Source: Myxococcota bacterium (lineage in GTDB: Bacteria > Myxococcota_A > UBA9042 > PHBI01 > JBMYRH01). From it: a stretch of 64,000 nucleotides of DNA. The notes under the pieces were generated by a model. That model worked only from the letters and a program-made list of their open reading frames with translations. It ran no database searches and had not been told where the DNA came from. Positions within the stretch are counted from its first letter, which is position 1, and every line of letters starts with the position of its first letter. Shown here one piece after another: positions 1 through 43,216 of the stretch. Position numbers and translations under genes: made by a program. Location: assembly GCA_049602155.1 (NCBI GenBank), contig JBMYRH010000014.1, forward strand, positions 99,860 through 163,859, written 5' to 3'.

Positions 1-1
1 G

Positions 2-318
2 GCGTGCTTATCTCGTGGTGGAGATCTGCTGAGCATCCACTCCCAAGAGGAGCAAGAGCTCATCGGTCAAGCGGCTTATGCGAGCTATAAAGGCCACCTG
101 TGGATAGGCATCAACGACCGAATCGAAGAGGGGACCTTTGCTTGGACCGATGGCTCCCCCGTCGACTTTGAGCATTGGAACAATAACGAGCCAAACGACT
201 GGGGCTCGGGCGAAGACTGCGGTCACCTCTATGAAGGCAACGACAACCGCTGGAACGATCTGCCCTGCGGCCATGAGGCCGGCTACCTCTGTCGGCTCCC
301 GAACCTCGACCTGCCCTA
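2..318 (+). CDS. C-type lectin domain protein, C-terminal fragment (the 5' end lies outside the window)
   Basis: The frame-2 translation reads ...GHLWIGINDRIEEGTFAWTDGSPVDFEHWNNNEPNDWGSGEDCGHLYEGNDNRWNDLPCGHEAGYLCRLPNLDLP and stops at TAG 316-318. It carries the canonical CTLD elements: a WIGL-like start, an EPN sugar-binding triplet, a WND motif and conserved Cys pairs. The supplied ORF track does not list this frame because no start Met falls inside the window. Confidence 0.6.
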
Positions 319-747
319 GACCTCGAGGAGCCGCTTGATGGACTGCAGATCCTTGGCGATCTGCTTCTTCAAGGCGCGCCCGAGCAAGGGGCCGTAGAGT
401 TTGGCGGCCCGGCCAGGGTTGCCGTGCAAGCGGAAGGTCATCACTGTCCCCTGACCTTGGGCAGCGAGCGTGATGCGGACCGCGTGCGGCAGGATGCCGC
501 CTTGGGCCTCTTCGGCGTAGACCGCGCCTGCTTCCAACTCCGTGATGATCTTGGCTGTGCGGATGACGCGCCCCATCAGCGTCGCCTCTTCGGTGAAGGT
601 GTCGCCGACCTTGAGGGGGCCTGAGCTGTCGCGAACGATCTTCACGATCGCCGAAGACCAACGCGGCGTCGCCTCGACGTCTGTGATCAGCTCGTAGACG
701 TCTGTGGGTGGTCTAGAAATCGTGACGGATTGTGTGACGTCGAGCAT
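316..747 (-). CDS. SRPBCC (START/polyketide-cyclase-like) family protein
   Basis: The 143-aa ORF contains TISRPPTDVYELITDVEATPRWSSAIVKI and a GDTFTEEATLMG segment, both typical of the SRPBCC ligand-binding fold. It converges on the lectin stop codon. Confidence 0.5.
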   Translation of the reverse strand: MLDVTQSVTISRPPTDVYELITDVEATPRWSSAIVKIVRDSSGPLKVGDTFTEEATLMGRVIRTAKIITELEAGAVYAEEAQGGILPHAVRITLAAQGQGTVMTFRLHGNPGRAAKLYGPLLGRALKKQIAKDLQSIKRLLEV

Positions 748-884
748 GGCGTACCTCGCGGAGCCAACCTAACCGACGCTGGGGAGCGATGACTAGCCCT
801 CCCCGCGCGCGAAGAGATAGTGTTGGTATTGGACCCCACCCGCTGAGCTACTGTAGATTCGCTCGTCTCCAAGGGAAATGCAGC

Positions 885-1841
885 ATGCGAACGAAGATTC
901 AACGACCCATCACGATGTCACCATGGATACTCGCGCTTCTGTGCGCCTTCGCTGTCGGCTGCGGGGATGCCTCGTCCACGTCGACCGAAGCAGACGCCGA
1001 AGTCGGCGCGGATGGGGTTGAGGAGGAGGGTGACACCACGCTCGACGGTGATCAGGATGCCCTCACACTCCCCGTCGAGGACGTCCTCGACGACAGCGAC
1101 GAGGAGATCGACGGGGAAGGAGAATTCCCGTCCGACCTCCCTGTGATCACCGAGATCAGTGAGGACGTCGATCTCTCAGAATTCTTCCCGGACGCGGTCG
1201 GGCCGGAGGCCGACGTCGTTGATGACGCCTCGGCTGACGTGATGTCTGACGTCAGTGATGACGCCGCTGACGTCACCATGGATGACGCCAGCGATGATGC
1301 CGCCACGTCCTCTGATGACGCCTCTTCGGATGTGGTTGAGGAGGAAGACACCTTCTTGGCCGACTGCGAAAACCTCGGCGTGGCCCCTCAGTGGGAGGGG
1401 ATCTTTGAGGGGGCGATCGAGTACCACATCCCTGAGGCCCTCGAAGAGCTCTTCTACCCACCGGATGGCATCTTGATCGTGGGGGGCACCCTCGCCTTCG
1501 ACATCGAGTGCGTGGACTCCAAGCTCATCGTGAGCGGAGACATGGCCGGCACGGCGAACGTGGCTGGGGAGGGCGATTTCCCCTTCACCATCACGCTCGC
1601 GGGCTACTTTAACCCCGAGACTGGGTTGCTCAACGCTAACCTCGTCGACGGGATGGTGGTGCTCTATGGCTTGGCGGAGATCTACTTCTCCGGAGACTTC
1701 ATTGGGACCTTGACCGACGAGGTCTTCAACGGCACATGGACCGGCATCTACGACGGGACGAATTTCCCGCTGCCGCCAGGAGATGTGCCAGACGCGGATG
1801 GCTCTGGGACCTGGAGTGCGCAGGCCGCCGAGGTCGATTAG
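885..1841 (+). CDS. acidic secreted lipoprotein, function unknown
   Basis: The internal Met at 885 gives MRTKIQRPITMSPWILALLCAFAVGCGD, a signal peptide with an AVGC lipobox. An AAGGGA Shine-Dalgarno sits 8 nt upstream. A D/E/S-rich low-complexity region follows, then a Gly-rich C-terminal domain. The stop is immediately followed by the next gene start at 1842. Confidence 0.5.
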   Translation: MRTKIQRPITMSPWILALLCAFAVGCGDASSTSTEADAEVGADGVEEEGDTTLDGDQDALTLPVEDVLDDSDEEIDGEGEFPSDLPVITEISEDVDLSEFFPDAVGPEADVVDDASADVMSDVSDDAADVTMDDASDDAATSSDDASSDVVEEEDTFLADCENLGVAPQWEGIFEGAIEYHIPEALEELFYPPDGILIVGGTLAFDIECVDSKLIVSGDMAGTANVAGEGDFPFTITLAGYFNPETGLLNANLVDGMVVLYGLAEIYFSGDFIGTLTDEVFNGTWTGIYDGTNFPLPPGDVPDADGSGTWSAQAAEVD

Positions 1842-4800
1842 ATGCGGCGCTTAGCACTGAGCGCCCTGATCGCAGTGGTCGCGAGCTGCGGTGGTGAGAG
1901 CCCTACGCCGACGTCCGACGCGACTGAGTCGAGCGACGTAGCGTCCCCTGACGTCAGCGGAGACAGCACAGAGAGCGCCCCGGAACTCGAAGACGCGCCG
2001 ACCCTGGAGGACACTCAGGCGCCTGTCGAGGACATCCCCGTCGCACCTGAGGTCGTCGACGCGATCGGGCCTGAGGATGTCGCGACGGATCCTCACGAGG
2101 ACGCGCCCGGTGACGGCCACAGTGAGCCCTCAGATGCAGATGGAGCGAGCGACGCAGCACAGGGAGACACGAGCGAGGATGTCGCCCCTGATGTCCCCCC
2201 GGAGCCAATCGTCGTGCCTGGTGATCAATGCGATGAGGCGCTGGTCATCGACCCGCTCGAATTGCCCTTTGAGTACGAAGGAGACACGACGCACGCCGCC
2301 GATGACGTCGCGCTAGCGGGGGGCTGCGGGACAGGTGGTGATATCGGTGCAGGGGCCCCAGATGTGGTCTTCTCATTTACCCCCTCTGTGACGGCGCATC
2401 ATGTCATCGGCATGAACCCAGCGACCGTGATCGGCGCGAGCCCGGCGGTGATCTACGTGTTGGAGGACTGCGACGACGCGGCCTTCTCCTGTGTGGGGGT
2501 GAGCAGTAACTTGAGCGCTGGCGGGGTCTTCAGTGTCTACCTTGAGGCGGGGACGAGCTACGCGGTCGTCGTTGATGGCCTCTTGCCCGAGGACTCAGGC
2601 GGCTTCACCTTTGTGGTCGAGGAGGTCGTGTGCGTCATCGAATGCCCCGGTCCGGAGTGCGGCAAGGATGGATGCGGCGGCTTCTGCGGTGAGGGGTGCG
2701 AGGAGGGGCTCGCGTGTCGCCCTGACGGCTTCTGCGAGACCCCACCGCTCATCGACGGCAACACCTGCGAGTCCCCCTTCCTGATCGAGTCCTTGCCCTA
2801 TGCGACGACTGGGGACACTTGGTACGGCACCAATGAGGGGGCCTTCGAGGCCAACAGCTGCCCAGGGGAGCCCCACCCAATCGGGGCTGCGAGCAATGAC
2901 CACTTCTATCAGCTGGAGATCCCGGCGACGGGGCTCTACTCCCTCGCCATCAACTCCGATTACGACGCGGCGCTCTACGTCATCGAGGATTGCGCGGATC
3001 TGAGCGGGAGCTGCGTCGCAGGGTCGGATCAATCGCTCAGCTCTGAGTCGATGGAGATCTACCTCGAGGCTGGCCAGACGCTGACCATCGTCGTGGACGG
3101 CTACGGCAACACCGAGAACATGAACGGCATCTACACCCTGCAGGTCAGCCAGGCCTGCGTGGCCTCCTGCGAAGCGAAGGACTGCGGTGATGATGGCTGC
3201 GGAGGCTCCTGCGGTGTCTGTAGCTACGGCGACGCGTGCCTTGAGGGGAGCTGTCTGGCTGCGCCGCTTGGCGACACCTGCCTTGACCCCTTCGTCATCC
3301 CGTCCGCCCCGTACACGGTGACCGGCGACACCTCCGGCTTTCATGGGGAGATGAGCTACGCCCCAGGGGAGTGCCCCGGGATGACCTTGGGCTGGGGAGC
3401 GGGCTCCAAAGACGTCATCTACACCTTTGAGCCGACCACGCAGGACCTCTACACGCTGACGCTCGAGGCGTCCTTCGACTCGACCCTCTACGTGGTGACC
3501 GACTGCTTGGACGTGGGGGGCTCATGCCTCGCGGCCGATGATCAGCACCCGACGATGGAGACCGTCGACGTCTGGATGTACCCCGGGACGACCTACTTCA
3601 TCGTCGTGGATGGCTATGGGAATCAGTCCAACGTCGAGGGGAGCTACACGCTCTCGATGGCGTCGGCATGCGTGCCGCACTGCAAGTTCAAGCAATGCGG
3701 ACCGGACGGGTGTGGTGGCTCTTGTGGGGAGTGTGAAGGCTTCTCGGTGTGCAGCGATGAGGGGCTGTGTGAGTCCCAAGAGGGCAACAGCTGCGATACG
3801 CCGTTCATGATCGAAGCGCTGCCTTTCTTGGGAGAGGGCGACACCTCGGACTCGACCAACTTGATGGGGGTCCCTTACGACGCGTGCCCCGATGAGACAG
3901 CCGTTCGAGGGCCTGTGAGCGCTGAAGAGGTCTGGGCCTTTACGCCCACGGAGTCGGGGGTCTACACAGCGCTCCTCGACTCGACGTTCCCAGCGGTGCT
4001 TTATGCGCTGACGGAGTGCTCGCAGTTCACGACGGAGTGCTTCATTGAGGAGAACCCCGGGGGCCTCGTCTGGTACGACGTGACCCCGGAGTGTGGATGG
4101 TCACATTACGATCAAGGGCAGTGTGTGGGGCTGGGCGCGGGCTTCTTGCTCTCAGGGGAGATCGTCCCGCTGAAGACGTACTTAGAGGCCGGGACGACCT
4201 ACTTCTATGTCGTGGACGGAAACGCCCTGAACGCGGACCAAAGTGGCCCTTACACCCTCTCACTTGATGGCCCCTGCATTCCGGAGTGTGACGGCAAGGT
4301 GTGCGGTCCTGATGGGTGTGGCTTGACCTGCGGCGAGTGCCCCAACGACCTGCTCTGTGATGACAGTCAGCAGTGCGTCACCCAAGAGGGCAACAGCTGC
4401 GCTACGGCCTTTGTGATCCCGGACGACGTGACCTTGCCGGTGGTCTATGAGGGCAACACGAACGACGCGACCAACACGTACGGCAAGCCCTACGGTGGAT
4501 GTCCTGACGAGAACAAGAAGATCGGAGCAGGTAGCCGTGACGAGGTCTACGCCTTTACGCCAGCGGAAGACGGGACCTACGAGATGACGATCGACGCGCA
4601 GTTCCAAGGGGCCCTCTACGTCCTCAATGACTGCTCGGAATTCCTCAGTGAGTGCTTCTTCAAAGAGACCAAGGGGCATGACTCTTGGGCAGCGGTTGTC
4701 CCCGGGTGCGGGTTCGCCTCAGAGACCTGTTTGGCAGCATACTTGGAGGACCCGGAGGAGCCTGAGGCGCTCTTGAGTGTGGAGCTGCTCGCGGGCGAGA

Positions 4801-5405
4801 CGGTCTACATCGTCGTCGATGGCCAAGGGGGGCTCTACGACACCTATGGGAGCTATACGCTGACCGTGGACAGCGCCTGTGATCCGCAGTGCGACGGACT
4901 TCAATGCGGTGACGATGGCTGCGGAGACGTGTGCGGTGTCTGCCCAGGGGGCTTCATCTGTGACGAGGCAGGTCAGTGCGTGGATGTGACCCAGACCCCT
5001 GGCAATTCCTGCGAGACTGCGTTCGTTGTGTCGTCGATCCCCTTCCTCGGGACCGGGGACACTTCGGACAATTCGGATGTCTATATCGCTGACACTTGCC
5101 TGTCTGTGTCGGCCGCCGCTGTGGCCGCTGGGGCTCGGGATGAGGTGTGGGTGCTGACGCCCGAGCAGAGTGGGCTCTACATCATCGACATCGCAGGCCA
5201 GGATGGCTTTGAGCCGATCGTGTACGTGGTCGACGATTGCAGTGATGAAGGGTGGAGCTGCATTAAGGGGACCAGCGACGTCACGATGGACATCGCTTTG
5301 GACGCCGGCGAGACCTACTACATCGTCGTGGATGGCGGCACAGACCCCGAAGACCCTCCGCCGACGACCGACGGGGGCTATGTGCTTGAGGTGACCCTGC
5401 CATGA
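1842..5405 (+). CDS. giant repetitive surface lipoprotein with six PPC-like (pre-peptidase C-terminal-like) beta-sandwich modules separated by Cys-rich linkers
   Basis: It starts with a lipoprotein signal, MRRLALSALIAVVASCGG, followed by an acidic spacer. The repeated unit is about 170 aa. Each unit has NSC-x-PF-I-x2-LP[YF]-x3-GDT, then E/DV[WY]AFTP-x4-G-Y, then LY[VA]-x-DC, then Y-x2-VDGY/G, then YTL. The linkers follow C-x3-C-x3-C-G-x-DGCGG-x-CG-x-C; examples are CGKDGCGGFCGEGC, CGDDGCGGSCGVC, CGPDGCGGSCGEC, CGPDGCGLTCGEC and CGDDGCGDVCGVC. Confidence 0.7.
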   Translation: MRRLALSALIAVVASCGGESPTPTSDATESSDVASPDVSGDSTESAPELEDAPTLEDTQAPVEDIPVAPEVVDAIGPEDVATDPHEDAPGDGHSEPSDADGASDAAQGDTSEDVAPDVPPEPIVVPGDQCDEALVIDPLELPFEYEGDTTHAADDVALAGGCGTGGDIGAGAPDVVFSFTPSVTAHHVIGMNPATVIGASPAVIYVLEDCDDAAFSCVGVSSNLSAGGVFSVYLEAGTSYAVVVDGLLPEDSGGFTFVVEEVVCVIECPGPECGKDGCGGFCGEGCEEGLACRPDGFCETPPLIDGNTCESPFLIESLPYATTGDTWYGTNEGAFEANSCPGEPHPIGAASNDHFYQLEIPATGLYSLAINSDYDAALYVIEDCADLSGSCVAGSDQSLSSESMEIYLEAGQTLTIVVDGYGNTENMNGIYTLQVSQACVASCEAKDCGDDGCGGSCGVCSYGDACLEGSCLAAPLGDTCLDPFVIPSAPYTVTGDTSGFHGEMSYAPGECPGMTLGWGAGSKDVIYTFEPTTQDLYTLTLEASFDSTLYVVTDCLDVGGSCLAADDQHPTMETVDVWMYPGTTYFIVVDGYGNQSNVEGSYTLSMASACVPHCKFKQCGPDGCGGSCGECEGFSVCSDEGLCESQEGNSCDTPFMIEALPFLGEGDTSDSTNLMGVPYDACPDETAVRGPVSAEEVWAFTPTESGVYTALLDSTFPAVLYALTECSQFTTECFIEENPGGLVWYDVTPECGWSHYDQGQCVGLGAGFLLSGEIVPLKTYLEAGTTYFYVVDGNALNADQSGPYTLSLDGPCIPECDGKVCGPDGCGLTCGECPNDLLCDDSQQCVTQEGNSCATAFVIPDDVTLPVVYEGNTNDATNTYGKPYGGCPDENKKIGAGSRDEVYAFTPAEDGTYEMTIDAQFQGALYVLNDCSEFLSECFFKETKGHDSWAAVVPGCGFASETCLAAYLEDPEEPEALLSVELLAGETVYIVVDGQGGLYDTYGSYTLTVDSACDPQCDGLQCGDDGCGDVCGVCPGGFICDEAGQCVDVTQTPGNSCETAFVVSSIPFLGTGDTSDNSDVYIADTCLSVSAAAVAAGARDEVWVLTPEQSGLYIIDIAGQDGFEPIVYVVDDCSDEGWSCIKGTSDVTMDIALDAGETYYIVVDGGTDPEDPPPTTDGGYVLEVTLP

Positions 5406-8400
5406 GGAACTCAGCGCTCATTATCGTCCTCGTCGCAGCCCTCTCGGCATGCTCGGATGCCGGGGGCATCGGCGAGGGCTCCGAGGCCATCGCCGACACG
5501 CAGACGGACCCCTCCGGGGGGGATTCCTCAGGAGAACCGGGTCGCTCGAACGGTTCGGGGAGTGGCTTTCAGTCCGCCGACGAGCTGGGTATCTCGGTCT
5601 CTCCCTCGGCGCTGACGTTTGGCGCAGTGGCCCTTGGTGCATCGGACTCCCAGTCCCTTGAGGTCTTGCACACGGGCAGCTCGGGTACTTTGGAGCTCAT
5701 CGATGTGCGCTACGTCACCCAAGAGGGCTCCGATATTAGCCTGGGCGAGGTCCTGACCACCCGACTTGACCCTGGCGAAGGCACCGAGATCGAGGTGCGC
5801 TTTACTCCGACGGACGCGGGTCAAGAGCGTGGCACTGTCGTGATAGACACCAACGCGATTGACGCGACGGGCGCAGCGCTCTCTGTCGAGGTCCCTGTCG
5901 AGGCGCCAGCGTTGACCTCGGAGCTCATCGCGGACGCCGCGATCATCGGCTTTGGTGGTGTCGCCACGGGCACGGAGAAGTCTCGGACGTTGACCCTCTT
6001 GAATGTCGGCACCTTGGATGTGACCGTCGAGGCGCTGACCATCGATGGGACCTCCTCTGCTGAGTTCGTGGTGCCAACCGCCGAGGTACTCCCGATGACG
6101 GTGGGGGCCGGCCTGAACCAAGCGGTCGAGGTGGTGTACACGCCGACAGGGTTCGACACGGACACCGCAACGCTGAGGATAGCGTCCTCAGCCGCAGACG
6201 GGCTGTCGGAGCTGATCGTGCCGCTCTCGGGGCATGAGATCTCAGCCGAGCTGAAGGTCACGCCGACCCCGCTTAACTTTGGCCTACGCGGCCCGGAAGA
6301 GGCGCATGTTGAGGTCTTGACTGTGACCTCCGGTAACCCAGAGGTCGACCTTGAGATCAGCGCCGTCTCAGTGGTGGAGACGGGGCCATGGAGTGGGACG
6401 GTGACCCTCGAAGCGTGGCCTGAAGAAGGTGTCGTGCTCACAGGGGGAGAGCCTCTAGAGGTCTCGGTCACCTTCACGCCGAGCGCGGACATGGTGTCAG
6501 GGCCCACGCCCATCGCGGAGATCGCCTTTGAGACCAACGACCCCTCAGATGAGGGTGTGCAGACCGTCGCAGTGCATGGACAGCGGCAGGGGACGGGCCT
6601 TGAGGTCTTCCCGCCGGACATCGTGTACTTCGGCTACGTCGGGATCGGCGGCACCGTCCGTCGAGAGGTCACGCTGTACAACGCGGGCAACAGCCCGCTG
6701 ACCGTCGACAGTGTCTACGTCGAGGGTGACTACGCGATCGTCGAAGGAGACCTCTGGTCTCCGACCGCAGACGGGCCCTCTCCGGCCACCCTCGGGCCTG
6801 GCGAACTGCAGGTCGTGACGGTGTCGTTTACGACCGCAGGACCGCCGCTTGAGACGACTTGGGGCAAGCTGATCATCATGTCTGACGACGTGGCCAAGCC
6901 CACTTGGGAGGTGTTGCTGAACGCGCAGAAGGTCGAGGGGGGCGATTGCCTGCTGCAGTTTGTCCCCAGCGCCTTGGACTTTGGGATGACGGCGCCTTGG
7001 ACAGCGCACACCCAGCAGTTCACCTTGGTCAACATCGGCACGGGCCCCTGTGCGTACCACAGCGCGATCACCGATGACTGTGAGACGACTCAGGGGTGTG
7101 AGGTCTCGGATGACGCCGAGATGGCGGCCTCGAGCAGCGCCAAGTACGTCGTGACCGCGGAGCCCGAGGTGGGCGCTGAGATAGGTCCAGGTGAGATGAT
7201 CGCGATTGAGGTCACGTTCACCGCGCCAGATCCGAGCCCCGTGATTACGCCTCACCCGGGGATGGTCCGCGCGCGGGTCACCTCGGTCTCGGGTCAGACC
7301 GGTGAAGACGTCGTGACGGTGCATCCATCCTCTTCGAGCTGGTTAACGCTGCCGAACCTCTTGGCCGAGGTGGGGGTCGGGCAGCTTGAGGTCGCCCCGC
7401 CGGTCTTGGACTTTCAGTTGGTGGAGATCGGCTGCGTGAGTCCACCCACGGTGGTCACAGGCACGAACGTCGGGATGGCGCACTTAGAGGTCGCCAGCTG
7501 GTGGCTTGAGGGCTGCTCCGACGAGGTCAGAGTCCTCGAGGCTCCTGAGCCAGACACCGTCCACACGTTGCAGATCGGTCAGTCAGTCGAGTGGATCTTG
7601 GACTACGCCCCTGTGGATGAAACGACTGACACCTGCAGCCTCTTCATCGTCAGCAGTGACAGTCAGACGCCCACCGAGGTCCCCGTGACGGGCTGGGGTG
7701 CTTACCCGGCCGAGCTCGTTGACCTCTTCACCGACTCCGAGGCGCAGAAGGTCGATGTGCTCTTCGTGGTTGATGACTCGGGCTCGATGTCCGAGGAGCA
7801 GGTGAACCTCTCAGACAGCTTTGAGGCCTTCATCTACGAGGCAGCGAGCTGGGACAGTGACTATCAGATCGCCGTCACGACCACGACGATCTCCCTCCTA
7901 GAGCTCTCCGGTGGCGCCCTCTACGGCTCGCCCCCGTGGGTGACGGCGGCCAACTGGGAGAAGTTCGTGAACATCGTGGAGGTCGGGACGAGCGGCTCGG
8001 GTGACGAGCAGGGCATTTGGGCGGCCTACATCGCGACCAGCTCTCCGCTCATCGACCCCCCAGAGGGGACCTGTGAGGTCGACAGCGACTGCGGCCTCCA
8101 CCGGGTCTGCCGTGTCGGGATGTGCCAGGGCGTCAACCACGGCTTCTTTCGGGAAGATGCGGCGCTGGAGATCGTCTTCGTCAGTGACGAAGAGGACCAC
8201 AGCCCGGAGGAGCTGGAGGCTTACTTGAACCACTTCCGCGGCATCAAAGGGTATGCGCACCCGGAGCTGCTCCATATGCACGCGATTGTCGGGCCCGCGG
8301 GTGGCTGCTCGTCGTCCAATGGCTCGGCTGAGGCGGGGCATCGCTACATGAACCTGGCTGACGCGACCGGTGGGGCGGTCTACTCCATCTGCGAGCTTGA

Positions 8401-8665
8401 TTTTGCGAAGGGGCTCGAGGGGATCGGTGAGATCGCCTTCGCCTCGAAGATGGAGTACACGCTCTCGCAGATCCCGGCGCCGACGACGATCATGGTCACG
8501 ATTGAGGGGCTCCCTTGCCCCGCGCTCACGGGGGGCATCTTCAACTGGGTTTACGACGCCGAGGACAACACGGTCACGCTCACCGAGGAGGGGATCTGCA
8601 CTGCCGGATCGGGTGACGAGGTCCTGATCGCCTATGACCTTCTCTGCTACGCTGAAGCAGACTGA
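5402..8665 (+). CDS. giant lipoprotein with choice-of-anchor-D/ASH-like Ig repeats and a C-terminal von Willebrand factor A domain
   Basis: The start ATG at 5402 overlaps the upstream stop by 4 nt (ATGA). The signal is MRNSALIIVLVAALSACSD. Several roughly 100-aa repeats have the form L-x-FG-x-V-x-G, then N-x-G, then L-x-V and so on, then FTP-x3-G, which is the choice-of-anchor-D pattern. The C-terminal part contains VLFVVDDSGSMSEE, a DxSxS MIDAS motif of vWA domains. Confidence 0.65.
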   Translation: MRNSALIIVLVAALSACSDAGGIGEGSEAIADTQTDPSGGDSSGEPGRSNGSGSGFQSADELGISVSPSALTFGAVALGASDSQSLEVLHTGSSGTLELIDVRYVTQEGSDISLGEVLTTRLDPGEGTEIEVRFTPTDAGQERGTVVIDTNAIDATGAALSVEVPVEAPALTSELIADAAIIGFGGVATGTEKSRTLTLLNVGTLDVTVEALTIDGTSSAEFVVPTAEVLPMTVGAGLNQAVEVVYTPTGFDTDTATLRIASSAADGLSELIVPLSGHEISAELKVTPTPLNFGLRGPEEAHVEVLTVTSGNPEVDLEISAVSVVETGPWSGTVTLEAWPEEGVVLTGGEPLEVSVTFTPSADMVSGPTPIAEIAFETNDPSDEGVQTVAVHGQRQGTGLEVFPPDIVYFGYVGIGGTVRREVTLYNAGNSPLTVDSVYVEGDYAIVEGDLWSPTADGPSPATLGPGELQVVTVSFTTAGPPLETTWGKLIIMSDDVAKPTWEVLLNAQKVEGGDCLLQFVPSALDFGMTAPWTAHTQQFTLVNIGTGPCAYHSAITDDCETTQGCEVSDDAEMAASSSAKYVVTAEPEVGAEIGPGEMIAIEVTFTAPDPSPVITPHPGMVRARVTSVSGQTGEDVVTVHPSSSSWLTLPNLLAEVGVGQLEVAPPVLDFQLVEIGCVSPPTVVTGTNVGMAHLEVASWWLEGCSDEVRVLEAPEPDTVHTLQIGQSVEWILDYAPVDETTDTCSLFIVSSDSQTPTEVPVTGWGAYPAELVDLFTDSEAQKVDVLFVVDDSGSMSEEQVNLSDSFEAFIYEAASWDSDYQIAVTTTTISLLELSGGALYGSPPWVTAANWEKFVNIVEVGTSGSGDEQGIWAAYIATSSPLIDPPEGTCEVDSDCGLHRVCRVGMCQGVNHGFFREDAALEIVFVSDEEDHSPEELEAYLNHFRGIKGYAHPELLHMHAIVGPAGGCSSSNGSAEAGHRYMNLADATGGAVYSICELDFAKGLEGIGEIAFASKMEYTLSQIPAPTTIMVTIEGLPCPALTGGIFNWVYDAEDNTVTLTEEGICTAGSGDEVLIAYDLLCYAEAD

Positions 8666-8769
8666 GCCGGTTTCCTGCTTGTACGTCGCCCCTTGCAAGG
8701 ACCTCCCGTCCTATCGCAGTCTGGAACTCATGATTCGCCCCCCGTTTACGCACCTCCTGCGAGCTTGAT

Positions 8770-11700
8770 ATGTACGGTTTTGCACTCCGAACGCTCTGCG
8801 CCCTCCTCCTCATTCTCGCCGGCTGTGGTGGTGATGATGAGGGGGCTACGTCTTCAAACGGAGCAACTCAGTGCTGCTCGGTCGATAGTGAGTGTCCTGA
8901 GGCCTTCGAGTGCTGCGGTGCGACCGAGGTTGAGCGGTCAGGGGTCTGTGTCCCGGCGGGCAACACCTGCAACTACAACAACACCTGCGCCCCCGACGAG
9001 CCTGCGCCCTCTCCAGACGTTGAGGAGGACACCACGGGGCCCTCTGACGTGGGCGACGAGGTAGAGGAGCCAGACACCGCAGAGCCAGATGTCGTGGCGC
9101 CCGAAGAGGTCGTCGTGCCTGAGGAGGTGGAGGAGGACGTCAGTGGCCCAGAAGAGGAGGTCGAGGAGGGCCCGGAATGCGTCGCGCCCGTCGACTGCGT
9201 CGACAAGGTCGAGGTCGCGCAGTGCCAAGAGGCCTCCTGTGAAGAGGGGCTGTGCGTCATCAAAGACATCGCTGAATGCTGCCAATCGGATGCTGACTGC
9301 GATGCGTTCCTTGAGGACACCTGTTGTACGACGAAGACCTGTGACGTGGCGGCGCAGAAGTGCGGCGAGACGACCCCGATTCCAGGCTGCTGTGAGGCCT
9401 CCTTCCAGTGCCCCTCAGATCAGGACCCGGCCACGATCGACATTTGCGCAGACGCATGCACCACCGACGGGTGCACGTACCTGCCCTTATTAAAGTGCGA
9501 GAATGAGATCACCTACATGACACAAGGCTTCAATGACGCTGAGATGGCGGGCCTCACCGTCAGCGACACCGACGTCTTTGATACGGTCTCTGTGTCGACT
9601 CAGAAGGGCAGCACGGTCAGCCCAGAGCGGAGCCTCTACTTTGGCTCTCCCGAGTGTCAGACCTACTACACGGGGCCCATGGAGAACTGTGAGCCGACCG
9701 ACTTCCTCGCCTCTGAGGCTACGCCGATCGGCTTGGAGGTGCGGACCGAGAACGTCACCCTGGCGTACGAAGAGGCCGCCTACTTGGGCTTCTGGGTCAG
9801 GATGTCCGCCGAGCCGGCGCTCTTAAGGCAGCCATGTCGCTCCCTGGCCACTTGCCGTCAGACCAGCTGTAACCCTGCGGATGACAGCTACCAAGCGTGC
9901 CTTGAGTTCTGCTCTGATAACACGAAGAGCCAGCTCTATGGCGGTGTCTCTTGCGACTGCCCGGGGGGCGATGAGGGGTTGGCTTGCGCGACCCAGTGTG
10001 TCGACGCAGCTTTCGGTGAGGTTGAGGCGTCCGCGGATGCACTCAGTGCCTGCGTCCTCGACGCTTGTGCGGCGGTTGAGGACGGTGCAGAGAGCGTCAT
10101 CTGTGAGCTTGAAGCCGTTGGCCCTGGCGGAGCGTGTGCGGCCGCCTCGGACAGCTGTGATGCGATCTACAGCTGGATGACGCCGACGGATTACCTCCGG
10201 GTCTCTATCGACACAGGCGAGGGGGAGCCTCAGACCATTTGGCGCAGCCCGGACAGCCTCGGGTTGGAGAATACGACCGAGGGAGAGTGGCGTTTTCAGG
10301 TCGTAGATCTCGAGCCCTTCAAGGGCAAGAACGTCAACTTCACGCTCTCGTTCATCGCGGATGGGCAGAAGAACTTCAACACCGGCGGTGGTGAGAACTA
10401 CTACGGCGCGTATGTCGATGATCTCATCGTGCGCACCGCGTGTGACACCTGCATCCCTGGCAGTGAGTGTGCCAAGGACTTCGATGGCTGCACCTCGGAT
10501 GTCTGCATGGGGATCCACGGTGACGCTGATGTAGGGCTCTGCACTTACCACGCCACGGTCCTGGGGAGCAGCTGTCAGCCTTGCGCCCAGCCCGGTGACT
10601 GCGGCAACGACCCCAACCTCGACTACACCTGTGACGAGGGGCTGTGTGGTTCGACGATCAAGAGCGAGTCCTGTGAGCCGTTCTCTAGTTTCCCTTACGA
10701 CACCCTGCCTGGTGGCGTAGCGATTCAGAGCTTTGAGGTCATCGGGGTCGACTTCTGGTCGGTAGAGGACCCTTACCCCGGCGACAATATCGCGTGGCAG
10801 GTGACGGACTCAGATGGCTACGTGGGTCCGAAGAGCCTCTACTTTGGGGACCCAGGGTCGGGGACGTATGAGGCGGATCCCGTGAACCCGGCGGCCGGGG
10901 CGATCTGGTCGCCGAGCTTCCAGATCTCGACCGAAGTGGGGATGCCGACGGTCCTGGCTTTTTGGCTCAACCTCTCGACCGAGTGGGATCTGCTCGGCGG
11001 AGACTTTGATCCGGAAGACCCTTATTTACAGCAGTACGACAAGCTCACCGTGTATCTCCACGAGGTCGGTGAGGATGAGCCGGTGGCGCTCTGGGAGTCA
11101 GGCACGACCCTCGGTAATTCGACCCTCGGGACCTGGCAACAGATCGGTATCGACGTCAGCGACTGGGCCAATAAGTTTGTACGCATCGGGTTTGAGTTCG
11201 ACAGCGGTGAAGGGGAGGGCAAGTCCTACGGCAATAACTTCGGGGGCGTCTACATCGATGAACTGACCGTGTCGGTGTACTGCGAGACCGAGTGTCTGAC
11301 CTCCGAGGTCTGTGATGACGGTGACACGTGCACGACGAATGCTTGCGTGCTTGGCGCCTGTGAGACGACGCAGCCTAATCCGGACTGCTGCCACGTTGAC
11401 GCTGACTGTAGTCACCCGAACGGCTGCGTGAATACGTCCTGCGTCGAGGGGACCTGTGAGTACGAATACAGCGCCCTCGCCAGCTGCTGTGACGATGGAC
11501 CCTGGCTCGATGGCTGGAGTGAAGGCTTCGAGGACGGCGCTCAGGGGTGGGCGACCATTGACTCGACGCCACCTGTGGTGTGGACGCTCTCTCAAGACGC
11601 TCAGCACTCGGGCTATTGGAGCTACAACTTTGCGGACCCCGAGACGGGCTTTTACAGCACCGCGGAGTTTGATGAGGCGCTCGGGGTAGAGATCGGTAAG

Positions 11701-12804
11701 CAGACCGGTGGACGCCTGATAAGCCCTGTCGTGTCCGTGCCGCCTTTCAACACAGGGAACCCCTTCGCTGAGTTCTGGTTAAACATGTCGACGGAGTGGG
11801 ACTTTGGAGACAAGGCGAACTTCGAGCCAGCCATCCCCGTCGATGAGCTTCGAGTGCTCGTCGCCACGGGCGGTAACGTGGTCGGCGCGGCAGAGCTGTG
11901 GACCAGTCATTACCTCTTCAACACGACCAAGGGAGAGTGGGCGCACACCTATGTCGACCTCGGAGATTACCGGGGTGAGGACGTGCAGCTCATCTTCGAG
12001 TTCATCTCCGGTGACGGGAATTTCAACGACTATGCTGGCGCCTTTGTTGATGATGTGAGCTTCGGGACGACCTGCAAGGCCGCTGCTGTGATTCAGTGCT
12101 TCGATGGCGGGGATTGCGCGAACAACGACGCGTGCACAGACGTGACCTGCACCGAGGACTTTACCTGCGTGTACCAGGCTGTGGACTCGCCACAGTGCTG
12201 TGAGCCGACGGATATGGAGGGCTTGGCGATGACCTTTGAGGCCGGCGCGTTGTCCTGGGAGTTCACGGCCTGTGACGCGGCAGAGACGGCGCCGGGTATC
12301 CCGGTCGATCCCAGCTCGACATGGAAGGTCGTCAACGAAGCTCAAGCGACCGGTATCGACGCCAAGTACGGCGAGGGCATGCTCTACTTTGGTAATGGAT
12401 TTGATTATGGCGGTGCGACGAGCACGGCCTCTTGTGGTCGCGCGGTCAGTGAGCCTGTGACGATCACGGCGTCGGACGCCCCTTGGATGCTGACTTACTG
12501 GATCTTCATGGACATCGAGCCGGCGACGGACTGTGACCAGGGCTTCGGTGCCCCATGGCTGGACGTCTTCACCCTTGAGATCCTCGACGAGACCAACGAT
12601 GACGCGACCCTCATCTTGGTCAAGGACTCCCTCTTGTGCAGCGACTACGGCGCTTGGGCACACCAGATGTGGGACTTGACCCCTTGGGTCGGCTCCACCA
12701 TCCGGTTCCGTGTCGGCTTTAACTCATGGGATCAAGAGGTCAACAGCGGCAAAGGCATCGCCCTCGATGAGTTTCGCTTCGAGAGGGGCTGCGCTGAGTT
12801 TTAG
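8770..12804 (+). CDS. giant Cys-rich lipoprotein with four MAM-like (meprin/A5/mu-type) domains
   Basis: The signal is MYGFALRTLCALLLILAGCGGDD, followed by Cys-rich and acidic N-terminal regions. Four modules begin with SLYFG, MLYFG or WSYNF. Each has an FWLN/YWIF-MS/D-x-EWD core and ends in G-x-Y/F-[IV]DD[LV/EL]-x-[VF]-x3-C, which is the MAM-domain end signature (G-IAIDD-x-F-C in animals). Confidence 0.65.
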   Translation: MYGFALRTLCALLLILAGCGGDDEGATSSNGATQCCSVDSECPEAFECCGATEVERSGVCVPAGNTCNYNNTCAPDEPAPSPDVEEDTTGPSDVGDEVEEPDTAEPDVVAPEEVVVPEEVEEDVSGPEEEVEEGPECVAPVDCVDKVEVAQCQEASCEEGLCVIKDIAECCQSDADCDAFLEDTCCTTKTCDVAAQKCGETTPIPGCCEASFQCPSDQDPATIDICADACTTDGCTYLPLLKCENEITYMTQGFNDAEMAGLTVSDTDVFDTVSVSTQKGSTVSPERSLYFGSPECQTYYTGPMENCEPTDFLASEATPIGLEVRTENVTLAYEEAAYLGFWVRMSAEPALLRQPCRSLATCRQTSCNPADDSYQACLEFCSDNTKSQLYGGVSCDCPGGDEGLACATQCVDAAFGEVEASADALSACVLDACAAVEDGAESVICELEAVGPGGACAAASDSCDAIYSWMTPTDYLRVSIDTGEGEPQTIWRSPDSLGLENTTEGEWRFQVVDLEPFKGKNVNFTLSFIADGQKNFNTGGGENYYGAYVDDLIVRTACDTCIPGSECAKDFDGCTSDVCMGIHGDADVGLCTYHATVLGSSCQPCAQPGDCGNDPNLDYTCDEGLCGSTIKSESCEPFSSFPYDTLPGGVAIQSFEVIGVDFWSVEDPYPGDNIAWQVTDSDGYVGPKSLYFGDPGSGTYEADPVNPAAGAIWSPSFQISTEVGMPTVLAFWLNLSTEWDLLGGDFDPEDPYLQQYDKLTVYLHEVGEDEPVALWESGTTLGNSTLGTWQQIGIDVSDWANKFVRIGFEFDSGEGEGKSYGNNFGGVYIDELTVSVYCETECLTSEVCDDGDTCTTNACVLGACETTQPNPDCCHVDADCSHPNGCVNTSCVEGTCEYEYSALASCCDDGPWLDGWSEGFEDGAQGWATIDSTPPVVWTLSQDAQHSGYWSYNFADPETGFYSTAEFDEALGVEIGKQTGGRLISPVVSVPPFNTGNPFAEFWLNMSTEWDFGDKANFEPAIPVDELRVLVATGGNVVGAAELWTSHYLFNTTKGEWAHTYVDLGDYRGEDVQLIFEFISGDGNFNDYAGAFVDDVSFGTTCKAAAVIQCFDGGDCANNDACTDVTCTEDFTCVYQAVDSPQCCEPTDMEGLAMTFEAGALSWEFTACDAAETAPGIPVDPSSTWKVVNEAQATGIDAKYGEGMLYFGNGFDYGGATSTASCGRAVSEPVTITASDAPWMLTYWIFMDIEPATDCDQGFGAPWLDVFTLEILDETNDDATLILVKDSLLCSDYGAWAHQMWDLTPWVGSTIRFRVGFNSWDQEVNSGKGIALDEFRFERGCAEF

Positions 12805-12810
12805 TGGAGG

Positions 12811-12831
12811 CGTATCAGGCGAGCCGATACG
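12811..12831. terminator. short hairpin between convergent genes (CGTATC-9nt-GATACG)
   Basis: A 6-bp inverted repeat with a 9-nt loop sits in the 38-bp gap between the convergent stops at 12804 and 12843. No U-tract follows it. Confidence 0.2.
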
Positions 12832-12842
12832 TGCCGCGCGCT

Positions 12843-13436
12843 TCAGGGAGCTGAGCCGCCCGTGAGCTGCACGTAGAGGTCCTCTTTTAGGACCGCGCCG
12901 TGGTCGTCTTGAACCGTGAGCTTGATGAGGGCCTCCGAGCCACTGACCTGAGGGTCCATCACCACCAAGAAGAGGTTGTAGTAGTAGTCCACGTCGTTGC
13001 CGCCAGGGATGAGCTTCTGTTTGGCGAGGCCGATCTCCCCTTGGGGCTCTTCGTCGACGGTGATTCGAGCGACGATCGTCACCTTGCCCTGGAAGATGTC
13101 ACGCGTTCGGAAGGCTAGGACCACCATCCAGAGGCCCTGGAAGCCGAGCTCGATGTTGAGCTCATCTCCGTTCACCAGGGGGCTGAAACTGTCGGGAGTG
13201 TTGGCGCCGGTGACGTTCGTCCCGGCCTCGAAGAAGGGCTCTGGGGCCACGATATCCTCGGCAGGCTGAGCGGCGTCGTCTGGTGTCAGCGCGTCTTGAG
13301 CCGGGCCGCATTCGTCTCCTGCTGAGCACGTGGCTACGTCGTCCACAGCGTTTTGTATGTCTTGCGCAGGCGGTGCGGCGGCTTCGCAGGCGAAGAGCAG
13401 CAGACAGAGCGTCAGTGTGGGGGCGAATCGCGTCAT
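12843..13436 (-). CDS. hypothetical lipoprotein
   Basis: The internal Met at 13436 gives MTRFAPTLTLCLLLFACEAA, a lipobox signal. This start lies 1 nt downstream of the Kelch gene stop, so the pair is an operon. Confidence 0.45.
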   Translation of the reverse strand: MTRFAPTLTLCLLLFACEAAAPPAQDIQNAVDDVATCSAGDECGPAQDALTPDDAAQPAEDIVAPEPFFEAGTNVTGANTPDSFSPLVNGDELNIELGFQGLWMVVLAFRTRDIFQGKVTIVARITVDEEPQGEIGLAKQKLIPGGNDVDYYYNLFLVVMDPQVSGSEALIKLTVQDDHGAVLKEDLYVQLTGGSAP

Positions 13437-13437
13437 C

Positions 13438-14826
13438 TTAGAAGCATAGATCGTTGCAGGTGAGGCCACCTTTGCGCAGGCAGCTGACCCCGACGGTCGC
13501 GGTGTCGACCTCGGTCCAGGTCAGGCTCTCGAGGTCGAGCGCCATCACGTCATCGACGACGCCGCAGTCTGTTTTGCCGCCTGAGAGCCAGACGGTTGAC
13601 TCGCTAGCGACCCAGATGTGCGCGTTTCGGCGCTCCGGCACCTCCATCGCTACGTTGGTGAAGTCCGGTGGGAAGCTACAGAAGCCGTTCGCCGGCTTGT
13701 TGTAGGTGTCCCCGAGGTCCACTTGGGTCCACGTGTGGAGATCGGGGTCAAAGGACCAGAGATCGTTTCGATTGCCCAGGAGGCCATCGTCATGCCCGCC
13801 GAAGAGGAGGTATCCGTCGTGCATCGTGTCGTGCACGAGCCCGCCCCAGAAGCGTCCATCCGGGCGCTCATTGATGGGGTCGTCTAAGCGCGTCCAGACT
13901 CCACTGTCGACGTCTAGTGTGTAGACCTCGTCATAGTACTGAGCATTGTCGAAGAAGGCCCCCTCATCGGCGCCGCCGTGGATCACCATGCGACCCCGTG
14001 CCGAGTCCCAGAGCGCGCTCTGAAACAAGCGCGGCGATGGGGTACCACTGGTCGCGAGCTCACTCCATGTCCCGTTGTTGAGGTCCAAGACCCAGGTGTC
14101 GTTAAGGGCGATATATCCCATGCCAGAGGCTGAGGCATTCCCGCCGAAGATGACCATACGGTGCGCACTGGGGTCGTAGACGACGCCGGCGTTGATGCGC
14201 GCGCTGGGGCCTGTCTCCTGGGCCACCTCGCTCCAGGTCTCGGTCGTGAGGTCGAAGGCCCACACGTCACCGTACAGCGTGTAGTTGCCGCTGGTCGCGA
14301 AGCGGTAGCGTCCGCCGAAGATCAGCATTCGATGCTCGGTGGAGTCATAGACCGCGGCGTGGCGTGTGCGGCCCGTGGGCGGTCCGCCCGAGACCATGCG
14401 CCAGAGTTGGCATTTCAAGTCGAAGATCCACGTCTCTTTTTCAAAGGTTGAGATCGGGAATGAGCACTCCACAGGGACGCCCAGAGAGCCGCCGAAGAAG
14501 ACCAATTGGTCACCGACAGGATCGAAGATCCCCGCGTGTTCACTTCGCCTCATCGGGCGCAGCCCATCTGGAGGTGGGCAGGGGTCCTCCACGGGCTCCT
14601 CGATCACGTCCTCGTCCGGTCCGGCTGTCCCATCGGCGGGAGAGCCCGCGTCTAACACGCCCGCTCCGCTCGCGTCGTCGCCACCCGTCGCTGTGACGCC
14701 AGCGTCCTCGTTGTCATCAGCGCCCTGCGCTGACGCCGTGTCGCCTTGCTCCGGAGCGGGGGCGCCGTCGCCGGAGTCGCATGCTCCGAGGCTGATGAGC
14801 AGAATAGCAAGCGCGCGGAGCTTCAT
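13438..14826 (-). CDS. Kelch-repeat beta-propeller lipoprotein
   Basis: The signal is MKLRALAILLISLGACDSG. Kelch-like blades recur, for example AGIFDPVGDQLVFFGG, RHAAVYDSTEHRMLIFGG, AGVVYDPSAHRMVIFGG and MVIHGG. An acidic, Gly-rich linker follows the signal peptide. Confidence 0.7.
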   Translation of the reverse strand: MKLRALAILLISLGACDSGDGAPAPEQGDTASAQGADDNEDAGVTATGGDDASGAGVLDAGSPADGTAGPDEDVIEEPVEDPCPPPDGLRPMRRSEHAGIFDPVGDQLVFFGGSLGVPVECSFPISTFEKETWIFDLKCQLWRMVSGGPPTGRTRHAAVYDSTEHRMLIFGGRYRFATSGNYTLYGDVWAFDLTTETWSEVAQETGPSARINAGVVYDPSAHRMVIFGGNASASGMGYIALNDTWVLDLNNGTWSELATSGTPSPRLFQSALWDSARGRMVIHGGADEGAFFDNAQYYDEVYTLDVDSGVWTRLDDPINERPDGRFWGGLVHDTMHDGYLLFGGHDDGLLGNRNDLWSFDPDLHTWTQVDLGDTYNKPANGFCSFPPDFTNVAMEVPERRNAHIWVASESTVWLSGGKTDCGVVDDVMALDLESLTWTEVDTATVGVSCLRKGGLTCNDLCF

Positions 14827-15146
14827 GGATGACCTCTCGATAATGATTTTCATTACCAGTCTGGAGTGGAGGGTGCCCTGAAAGCAATGCGTTTTCGCGT
14901 GTTGAGTCAAGCGTTTTAAGGAGTTGCCTTCTATCAAGGAGAGATCTCAGTCGACCTTTTCATCCCAAAATGCACCTGACAGGCTTGATGATGGCATGAC
15001 CGCCGGCCACAACCTTCTTCACATCAACAAGTGTAGCGTTTTTACACACGGAGCATGTCTAGATGTGGTGAATAAGTCGGCATTACCTTGGCGGGTCGTA
15101 ACCCAGAAAGGTCTGTTTTCGCATTAATCACAAATACTTGTGGTGG

Positions 15147-15162
15147 TTGGCACGGCTGTTGC
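15147..15162 (+). promoter_or_regulatory. sigma-54 (RpoN) -24/-12 promoter, TGGCACG-GCTG-TTGCT
   Basis: This is an exact match to the sigma-54 consensus TGGCACG-N4-TTGCW. It lies 35 bp upstream of the ATG at 15197, inside an AT-richer 259-bp divergent intergenic region. Confidence 0.55.
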
Positions 15163-15196
15163 TCTGTGTGCTGTCATGTCACGCACCACTTAGGAG

Positions 15197-15805: not shown

Positions 15806-15900
15806 CGCCCTCATGCCCGTGCTCTCCTGGTGCCTGTCCCTCATGTCAGGAGAGCATTGAGCCGATGGCCCTCACCCCCTTGGGCCATCGGCTCTCTTTT

Positions 15901-18204: not shown

Positions 18205-18294
18205 GGTGGAGCTCCCGAGAGATGTGCAGATAGTGTTCCCTACTATGCATTCGTCTCTCGACCGTGGCCATCGGCGCACTCCATACTCCCGGCC

Positions 18295-33555: not shown

Positions 33556-33604
33556 TGGCGGGAATGTCTCGTCACCTCATCCACCTGCGCGGGAGCCGCA
33601 TGGC

Positions 33605-37903: not shown

Positions 37904-37914
37904 GGGAGCCCAAG

Positions 37915-39177: not shown

Positions 39178-39206
39178 TTTTTTTTGGACCCTGAGGAGGG
39201 AGCCCA

Positions 39207-39593: not shown

Positions 39594-39595
39594 GC

Positions 39596-43207: not shown

Positions 43208-43216
43208 GAGGAACCC

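Follow-up and report, generated by a model that had tools for sequence, protein, structure and literature searches.

The DNA analysed here, a stretch of 64,000 nucleotides from contig JBMYRH010000014.1 of an uncultured, apparently marine Myxococcota bacterium (assembly GCA_049602155.1; hereafter the window), carries four consecutive lipoprotein genes, g0, g1, g2 and g3, which on balance we take to encode an outer-membrane-anchored adhesion set, centred on a β-integrin-like adhesin, g2, that has an adhesion site of the metal-ion-dependent type (MIDAS) and is related to CglD and Bd0875. The four products would be non-enzymatic, disulfide-rich and very acidic lipoproteins anchored in the outer membrane, which together would adhere to the substratum, to matrix or to other cells. 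The receptor-like part would be g2, in which a lipid anchor and a short tether would lead into a stalk of six immunoglobulin (Ig)-like domains and a vWA head whose MIDAS (D791-x-S-x-S plus conserved acidic loops) may bind a ligand carboxylate through a divalent cation. The g1 protein, probably produced with g2 by translational coupling at an ATGA overlap, would be a long multivalent array of six modules with the fold of PPC and collagen-binding domains (CBDs), spaced by 8-Cys knots, and could either bind a polymeric substrate as a co-adhesin or itself be the g2 head's partner or ligand. Outside this conserved module, g3 appears as a lineage-specific addition, a predicted four-domain array of InhA-like/choice-of-anchor J type. 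A first-pass annotation of this DNA had proposed an adhesion or cell-contact apparatus, which is a reasonable inference from the homology of g2 to CglD and Bd0875. From homology and architecture, the most likely role of g2 is to hold out a metal-dependent binding site on the tip of its Ig stalk. The sequence data establish gene order, couplings, domain folds, motif conservation and the pattern of co-occurrence among relatives; from these we infer a surface or outer-membrane location, metal-dependent ligand binding, an adhesion function and any contact between g1 and g2.

The four open reading frames lie on the forward strand at 789–1841 (g0), 1842–5405 (g1), 5402–8665 (g2) and 8770–12804 (g3). 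The ATG of g1 stands directly 3′ of the g0 stop codon TAG, g1 and g2 share the 4-bp ATGA overlap, and 104 bp separate g2 from g3; both the coordinates and the junction sequences thus agree with the earlier description of consecutive lipoprotein genes joined by overlaps or short gaps. We read the translations by eye for a positively charged n-region, a hydrophobic h-region and a lipobox of the form [LVIA]-[ASTVI]-[GAS]-C, and all four proteins qualify as signal peptidase II substrates, with lipoboxes AVGC, VASC, LSAC and LAGC (g0 to g3), lipidated Cys at positions 56 (counted from M1), 16, 17 and 19, and G, G, S and G at position +2. The lipoprotein signals predicted for g1, g2 and g3, and the acidic lipoprotein gene predicted upstream of them, are accordingly all found. 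Every product is very acidic (D+E 15–22%, K+R 1.6–3.4%), Cys residues number 69 in g1 and 84 in g3, and low-complexity tethers rich in D, E, P and S follow the lipidated Cys in g1 (~105 residues) and g2 (~50 residues). Pfam and NCBIfam scans found no catalytic domain in g0 to g3.

The evidence for an adhesin comes chiefly from g2, a lipoprotein of 1087 residues (5402–8665; Cys17 in LSAC) whose start overlaps the g1 stop. Its stalk consists of six Ig-like domains of the choice-of-anchor-D/ASH/HYDIN type (5594–7681, forward strand; residues 65–157, 176–269, 284–385, 400–505, 519–619 and 662–760). The choice-of-anchor-D model NF012200 matches four stretches of the protein with 135.5 bits (cutoff 45; E=9.7e-40), Pfam detects HYDIN/ASH/Cep192-type Ig domains (PF22544, PF15780), and an HMM (hidden Markov model) iterated on g2 orthologues resolves all six repeats over residues 65–760, at independent E-values (iE) of 1e-19 to 4e-43, in line with the repeats named in the first-pass annotation. 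Behind the stalk lie a vWA domain (about residues 783–1020), which has an α/β Rossmann-like fold by structure prediction, and a β-rich C-terminal subdomain (about residues 1018–1082), together spanning 7748–8662 on the forward strand. Within the vWA domain, a 4-Cys insert at C891–C908 has all four Cys invariant in 13 orthologues.

The MIDAS itself, D791-D-S793-G-S795 within VDVLFVVDDSGSM (7772–7786, forward strand), was read from the alignment of these 13 full-length g2 orthologues (27–96% identity), in which D791, S793 and S795 are invariant; among 61 homologues of the g2 head, D791 is again invariant, and at least 90% retain S793 and S795. The 13 orthologues further share invariant S866 and E869, in a GSGDEQG loop, and D929, E930 and D932, in a VSDEED stretch after a β-strand, which motif position and predicted secondary structure suggest as further metal ligands. 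The D-x-S-x-S motif and the distal acidic and Ser positions would together make up a MIDAS motif. Curated models of the domain are silent here: no VWA family (PF00092, PF13519 and others) is found by Pfam in residues 707–1087 even at E<=10, and a profile of the g2 head finds only integrin beta-1, weakly (E=0.07), among PDB sequences. The vWA/MIDAS identity of the g2 C-terminus, as first proposed, is nevertheless confirmed by the fold and by the invariant D-x-S-x-S motif, the curated HMM scan being negative.

Two families of known adhesins match parts of the same region. The Bdellovibrio MIDAS family adhesin model NF052240 gives a partial match (E=2.6e-13, 49.9 bits) confined to profile positions 54–114, against an equivalog cutoff of 700 bits over a 378-position model, and the CglD model NF033765 matches residues 726–998 at profile positions 591–873 (6.5e-10, 37.5 bits; equivalog cutoff 400). 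These scores rule out g2 as an orthologue of either CglD or Bd0875. A search with the g2 head alone retrieved 166 homologues, many of them stand-alone proteins of 300–350 residues from Myxococcota and Bdellovibrionota and a few of them named VWA.

A second line of evidence is the association of g2 with g1. Full-length g2 orthologues number only 13 in a set of 5.8 billion proteins, and we gathered eight g1–g2 loci, the window included, from the contigs of g2 orthologues and g1 orthologues. In all eight, a g1-type gene of ~1140–1190 residues adjoins a g2-type gene of ~1070–1090 residues, with g2 confirmed by sequence in six; in 6 of the 8 the two genes share 4 bp where g1 stops and g2 starts. 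Identities of the pair to the window are 84/82% on the P0003/P0049 contig, 67/70% at L001, 49/53% at L006, 42/44% at L002, 45/47% at L086 and 45/45% at L087, while on the P0053 contig the neighbour is known by its size and Ig-domain hits alone; across the comparable loci, g2 identity spans 42–84%. The genes around the pair differ among L002, L086, L087 and the window, and therefore the pairing is not mere whole-genome synteny. Translational coupling of g1 and g2 suggests that the cell makes the two proteins at a constant ratio and that they probably work together.

The third gene behaves differently. g3 follows the pair only in the window, on the P0003 contig and at L001, where the flanks are syntenic as well. 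It is absent downstream of the pair in the other four loci compared, where we find an amidohydrolase gene on the other strand (L002), a small unrelated gene (L086), a gene for a GGDEF protein (P0053 contig) and one for a Laminin_G/metallophosphatase protein (L087). The three-gene operon of the first-pass annotation, which had itself named failure of the genes to co-occur in relatives as one of the observations that would speak against it, is hence half upheld: g1 and g2 stay together in all eight loci, mostly with the ATGA overlap, and g3 drops out beyond the closest relatives. The locus consists of a conserved g0-g1-g2 core with g3 as a lineage-specific neighbour, which is likewise a non-catalytic binding array and a recent arrival at this place.

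The first gene of the core, g0, opens at 789; its annotated M1 is probably too early, because the signal makes sense only from an internal Met, either M33 (nucleotide 885) or M43 (nucleotide 915), and the orthologue at L001 begins to align where this internal start is predicted. The acidic lipoprotein (885–1841, forward strand) combines the AVGC lipobox with a D/E/S-rich tether and a C-terminal domain of ~185 residues, and neither this domain nor the rest of the protein has a Pfam or NCBIfam match. Homologues stand directly upstream of the g1 orthologues at L001 (64% identity) and L086 (42% over the C-terminal 185 residues), and two JGI contigs have at this position a protein of 302–304 residues without family hits.

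The g1 lipoprotein (1187 residues; 1842–5405, forward strand; Cys16 in VASC) begins with an acidic, proline-rich tether of ~105 residues, after which six PPC/CBD-like β-sandwich modules of ~140 residues alternate with five 8-Cys mini-domains of 33–35 residues. A MAFFT alignment of the six modules places them at residues 121–263 (2202–2630), 299–438 (2736–3155), 472–609 (3255–3668), 644–811 (3771–4274), 846–1012 (4377–4877) and 1047–1187 (4980–5402); module 4 has an extra Cys-containing insertion of ~25 residues and module 5 a similar one, and the motifs G-[DN]-T and VVDG are conserved in all six. The linkers, located by regular expression and the same alignment, occupy residues 264–298 (2631–2735; CVIECPGPECGKDGCGGFCGEGCEEGLACRPDGFC), 439–471 (3156–3254), 610–643 (3669–3770), 812–845 (4275–4376) and 1013–1046 (4878–4979). 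This is the arrangement of six modules separated by Cys mini-domains that had been described before. Its DGCGG linker motif, said to be strictly conserved, holds overall, with eight invariant Cys and an invariant CG-x-DGCG core in the consensus C-x3-C-x3/4-CG-x-DGCG-x2-CG-x1/2-C-x5/6-C-x4/5-C; in detail it does not, as DGCGL and DGCGD stand in two of the linkers and linker 1 is spaced differently.

The assignment of the modules to the PPC family holds by fold and fails by the curated HMM. When modules 1, 2, 3 and 6 were scanned singly, PF04151 matched only module 2, at 17.5 bits (E=0.008) against a gathering score of 25.9 bits; modules 1, 3 and 6 gave no match at E<=10, and the whole protein gave no PPC match. 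Matches of modules and linker to Mst87F, PA14, DP-EP and choice-of-anchor R are sub-threshold and were taken as chance; for the whole protein, Pfam and NCBIfam report sub-threshold PA14 and choice-of-anchor R matches only. AlphaFold, given module 2-linker 2-module 3 aligned with 28 homologous fragments (A2), returned a model with a pLDDT (predicted score in the local distance difference test) of 88.2, in which the modules have the β-sandwich fold of the collagenase CBD/PPC type and linker 2 forms a small unit ending in a β-hairpin (pLDDT about 72–83). It is because of this model that we assign the g1 modules the PPC/CBD fold, and their closest structural relatives are the collagen-binding domains of secreted collagenases. 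Pfam and NCBIfam detect no secreted-protease catalytic domain N-terminal to the modules, and since it has no catalytic domain g1 is not a pre-peptidase.

The linker also occurs well beyond g1. The g1 family comprises 75 cluster representatives, almost all without Pfam annotation, and nearly all contain 1–12 copies of the 8-Cys mini-domain, often in tandem with a period of ~35 residues; it is found too in proteins with gingipain C25, PAD_porph, LTD, TIG or PPC domains. A wider form, CG-x-[DN]GCG-x(1,3)-CG-x(1,2)-C, covers the g1 linkers and proteins P0049–P0123, and no Pfam or NCBIfam model matches the unit. The mini-domain behaves as an independent unit and is a candidate for a new mini-domain family. 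The same metagenome-assembled genome (MAG) encodes on another contig a second g1-family protein, P0064 (NCBI ACPGU1_06620), with 1424 residues, 34% identity to g1 and six strict matches to the Cys-linker motif. We also considered a bolder form of the adhesion proposal, in which g0-g1-g2 would be a self-contained receptor-and-matrix pair, the g2 MIDAS head binding an acidic loop of the co-translated g1, comparable to the engagement of an integrin-like partner proposed for the COMP-like region of CglD, in an integrin/extracellular-matrix-like cohesion or prey-contact system dedicated to these uncultured marine myxobacteria, and in which the 8-Cys CG-x-DGCG-x2-CG-x-C unit would represent a rigid spacer domain that is widely reused and had not been described before; in this full form we regard it as doubtful.

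The kinship of the g1 modules with collagenase domains opens the main rival explanation, in which the genes encode independent surface lipoproteins for foraging or substrate capture: g1 and g3 would bind protein or polysaccharide polymers and so keep food or debris of prey at the cell, g2 would simply add one more binding protein, and the neighbouring genes would not encode a complex. The proposal starts from the fact that CBD/PPC modules and MAM-like/cleaved-adhesin modules normally serve secreted proteases, and besides the collagenase relationship it draws on the g1-family modules and Cys mini-domain found in gingipain C25 or PAD proteins. The g1–g2 pair is harder for it to accommodate, as an ATGA overlap kept over 42–84% identity and in varied contexts argues for co-production of at least these two proteins, and conserved genes for a protease, a glycosidase or a transporter are missing beside the pair. 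Its remaining evidence lies in g3.

The g3 lipoprotein (1344 residues; 8770–12804, forward strand; Cys19 in LAGC), analysed by translation, Pfam/NCBIfam and a profile, has Cys-rich N-terminal segments and an acidic tether, followed by four MAM-like jelly-roll domains with Cys-rich spacers between them. A domain profile built solely from homologues outside the window recovers all four, as claimed earlier: domain 1 (about residues 243–558; 9496–10443) in two parts, 248–350 (iE 6e-12) and 471–559 (iE 1e-16); domain 2 (residues 635–838, profile 650–840; 10672–11283; iE 1e-44); domain 3 (residues 906–1102, profile 914–1104; 11485–12075; iE 1e-48), which also has a choice_anch_J match at residues 916–1097; and domain 4 (residues 1143–1341, profile 1154–1342; 12196–12792; iE 5e-32), all on the forward strand. 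The two halves of domain 1 align on either side of an insertion of ~120 residues (351–470; window 9820–10180) that contains 17 Cys and matches no family. The domains end in GAYVDDLIVRTAC, GVYIDELTVSVYC, GAFVDDVSFGTTC and GIALDEFRFERGC, respectively, so that the ending G-x-[IV]DD-x-F-x3-C given in the first-pass annotation fits loosely, with DD in two of the four and an exact match in none.

The MAM assignment depends on the model used. The eukaryote-type MAM model PF00629 matches only domain 3, which is the closest of the four to curated models, at 18.4 bits against a threshold of 26.4 (E=0.002, model positions 3–157), and does not match domains 1, 2 and 4; the whole protein passes the cutoffs of InhA-like_MAM PF20773 (34.5 against 26.9) and of choice-of-anchor J NF038128 (36.3 against 30), and every single domain falls below threshold for each curated model. 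A profile of 32 family domains finds 4yu5, the structure of InhA from B. thuringiensis/cereus, at 1.4e-7, the adhesin domains of gingipain Kgp at 9e-4 and 0.014, and the MAM domain of meprin alpha at 0.026; among the 32 members 18 match PF20773 and 6 match PF00629 (best 2e-8). In a library of 1.84 billion proteins, a profile of the four g3 repeats matches 2010 cluster representatives at E<=1e-3 and 584 at E<=1e-10, many of them with the architecture of g3, namely ~1150–1250 residues, a lipobox and four matched stretches. The remark that bacterial MAM domains are rare is therefore wrong for this family. By these profile comparisons, the g3 domains fall within the MAM superfamily, on its bacterial InhA-like/choice-of-anchor-J side, and are common.

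At L001 the g3 orthologue (13349–17386) was called as two genes (894 and 448 residues, 6 bp apart), although tblastn gives one continuous match at 73% identity; the break may be genuine, or due to a stop codon or to an error in sequencing. In both close relatives, an Ion_trans channel gene stands between g3 and the genes for a 206-residue protein and a Kelch protein (L001 17474–18427). The window has no such gene at 12805–13000, and a convergent open reading frame of 208 codons (12843–13469) comes directly after g3.

For the foraging proposal, the profile matches of g3 to the MAM-like domain of the InhA metalloprotease and to the adhesin domains of gingipain Kgp, and the fact that g3 is not a conserved partner of the pair, are points in favour. 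We judge it unlikely, though the foremost competitor of the adhesion set.

The composition of the four proteins brings a third explanation into view, a structural coat or matrix in which acidic, Ca2+-binding, disulfide-locked repeats would form a surface layer or scaffold without a specific ligand. Their extreme acidity (D+E up to 22%, with very few basic residues) and the long, repetitive, rod-like architecture with rigid Cys spacers would suit such a role, as would the presence of vWA, MAM and EGF-like Cys units, which are typical of eukaryotic matrix proteins. The paper on CglD draws the same analogy (bioRxiv 10.1101/2023.10.19.562135). Pfam and NCBIfam scans show no self-assembly or S-layer motifs, however, and a lipid anchor combined with an intact, invariant MIDAS points to a ligand-binding receptor instead of a passive scaffold, which makes a coat improbable.

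Location raises a further question. Outer-membrane lipoproteins face the periplasm by default. This default is discussed in PMC9946355, and together with a type II secretion system (T2SS) cluster at 32.5–46 kb of the same window it could indicate envelope lipoproteins that face the periplasm, perhaps as parts of a machine spanning the envelope, of which that secretion system is an example. A periplasm would hardly accommodate proteins of 1100–1350 residues with ~100-residue tethers, six to ten β-sandwich domains and as many as 84 Cys, the characterised relatives CglB, CglD and Bd0875 function on the surface or where predator meets prey, and the T2SS genes lie 20 kb away and are unlinked to the pair in L002, L086 and L087. 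We give a periplasmic role as slim a chance as the coat.

Beyond the near clade, g2 has a history of its own. A pattern scan in which one genome stood for each GTDB species yielded at least 368 confirmed g2 relatives, and 79 loci were kept for neighbour analysis. All 79, full-length at 27–39% identity, come from Myxococcota, among them Myxococcus, Corallococcus, Pyxidicoccus, Bradymonadia and Nannocystaceae, and the M. xanthus homologue (L063:9902–12847) has the same NCBIfam pattern as g2. None of the 79 has a g1- or g3-type neighbour by tblastn and HMM searches, so that no such neighbour was found outside the near clade: about nine are tandem g2 duplicates, about nine have an Ig-only protein of ~750 residues upstream, and the others have g2 alone. 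The tandem pairs are two genes of ~1100 residues with Ig and vWA domains, arranged head to tail (L047, L049, L053–L056, L059 and L064). A constant association of the g2 family with a large repeat-protein partner is ruled out, as most loci have g2 alone. A general pairing of PPC-array proteins with vWA proteins is likewise ruled out, as the g1 paralogue P0058 is followed by an unrelated protein of 326 residues. The Ig-stalked MIDAS lipoprotein is an ancient and widespread element.

Several of these observations weigh against the adhesion set as we propose it. The g2-family genes stand mostly alone, in tandem or beside Ig-only proteins across Myxococcota, and the g2 head clearly needs no g1-type partner; P0058 has another architecture than g1 and no vWA neighbour. 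With 49.9 bits against 700 for the Bd0875 type and 37.5 against 400 for CglD, g2 is far below the equivalog cutoffs, and functional transfer therefore spans a large distance. In most cases PPC/CBD and MAM-like modules serve secreted proteases as appendages for binding substrate, so that foraging fits these modules as well as adhesion does, and the sequence does not tell surface exposure from a periplasm-facing orientation. The DNA comes from a MAG, for which NCBI lists g1 and g3 as hypothetical proteins and g2 as a "choice-of-anchor D domain-containing protein" (records MGB0590846-8, which match g1–g3 exactly and lie on a 172-kb contig; locus tags ACPGU1_14290 to ACPGU1_14300, the last being g3). 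We still prefer the adhesion set.

The surroundings of the cluster include further predicted secreted or eukaryote-like domain proteins (window 13438–14937 and 15901–18279, both on the reverse strand), among them a Kelch β-propeller and an NAGPA phosphodiester glycosidase with MopE-type Cu-binding motifs, and in relatives such as L001 a CotH + MopE + C-type lectin protein is encoded upstream of g0. The T2SS gene cluster (32527–46000, forward strand) begins about 20 kb from the lipoprotein genes and contains genes for the secretin GspD (33605–36175), the ATPase GspE (36176–37903) and GspF (37915–39177), small open reading frames that are possible pseudopilins (39596–41864) and a PilM/GspL-like gene (43217–45196), all on the forward strand. 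The G+C content of the lipoprotein cluster region (0.61–0.64) is similar to that of the remaining window, and this comparison gives no sign of a foreign island. A promoter and terminator scan of 1–13500 returned counts at or below shuffled expectation, and a tRNA scan found none.

Every fold and functional class described here is already known; new are the clade-specific coupling of a CBD array to an integrin-like adhesin, the size of the g2 family and the unmodelled 8-Cys spacer. The combination of an Ig stalk and a MIDAS head belongs to a much larger uncharacterised family, with at least 368 members across Myxococcota including M. xanthus, and an uncultured, apparently marine clade has coupled this adhesin translationally to an array of six CBD modules, an obvious candidate for its partner or ligand. 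The ~35-residue 8-Cys spacer, the PPC-like module family and the four-MAM-like lipoprotein architecture are without Pfam or NCBIfam models and worth curating. Our literature searches found nothing relevant on 'DGCGG', nor on 'choice-of-anchor D' with Myxococcus. The practical value lies in a lead for adhesion studies in cultivable myxobacteria and not in a new principle.

Among known systems, the g1 modules compare with the collagen-binding domains of ColG and ColH (s3a/s3b) and with PPC PF04151, from which they differ in the lack of a catalytic domain and in a sub-threshold Pfam HMM score; in contrast to the clostridial CBD, they have two additional disulfides and form a chain of six with 8-Cys spacers in between. 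InhA-like MAM, choice-of-anchor J, MAM and gingipain cleaved-adhesin domains make up the superfamily to which the g3 domains belong, and at their C-terminus the g3 domains show a G-x-x-[VIL]-D-[DE] ... C signature similar to the one in MAM domains. Unlike InhA, g3 has no protease domain, and its four copies are split by Cys-rich spacers; the same four-domain lipoprotein architecture of ~1150–1250 residues recurs in many uncharacterised proteins.

The vWA/MIDAS lipoproteins CglB, CglD and Bd0875 have only recently been seen as integrin-like adhesins for gliding or prey entry, and we know of no identified ligand for any of them. CglB is a surface-exposed, disulfide-stabilised vWA lipoprotein that couples the gliding machinery of M. 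xanthus to the substratum, and its MIDAS Asp mutant is non-functional (PMC9946355). As an outer-membrane lipoprotein with a vWA domain, a MIDAS, many disulfides and a β-jelly-roll accessory domain it resembles g2; unlike g2, it is of the α-I-domain type, much smaller and dependent on the GltABHK outer-membrane platform, and no sequence match between the two was seen with the searches used. CglD, likewise a surface-exposed, disulfide-stabilised vWA lipoprotein that links the gliding machinery to the substratum, provides traction, as does CglB, at M. xanthus focal adhesions (bioRxiv 10.1101/2023.10.19.562135). It shares with g2 the format of a Myxococcota lipoprotein of ~1100 residues with a Cys-rich, disulfide-stabilised extracellular stalk and a C-terminal β-I-like vWA domain with a MIDAS. 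The CglD equivalog score (37.5 against 400 bits) sets g2 apart, as do six choice-of-anchor-D Ig domains in place of the COMP-like Ca2+-binding region, the lack of DxDxDG repeats and a locus with no glt or agl genes nearby.

Bd0875 is a MIDAS adhesin with a lipobox that acts at the Bdellovibrio–prey junction; prey invasion requires the Asp of its DxSxS motif, and its MIDAS domain is inserted in a small β-rich domain (PMC11003981). Bd0875/Bd1483 (NF052240) are shorter than g2 (~350–380 residues), lack the Ig stalk and have a role in prey invasion specific to a periplasmic predator, and g2 matches only profile positions 54–114 of their model, at 49.9 against a cutoff of 700, and is hence no orthologue. 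Like g2, they have a lipobox, a homologous region around the DxSxS motif (E=2.6e-13), a Cys-containing insert in the vWA domain and a β-rich segment after it; by the description of Bd0875 alone, the β-rich segment that follows the g2 vWA domain recalls the small β-rich domain of that protein. Stand-alone homologues of the g2 head, of ~300–350 residues, are present in both Bdellovibrionota and Myxococcota.

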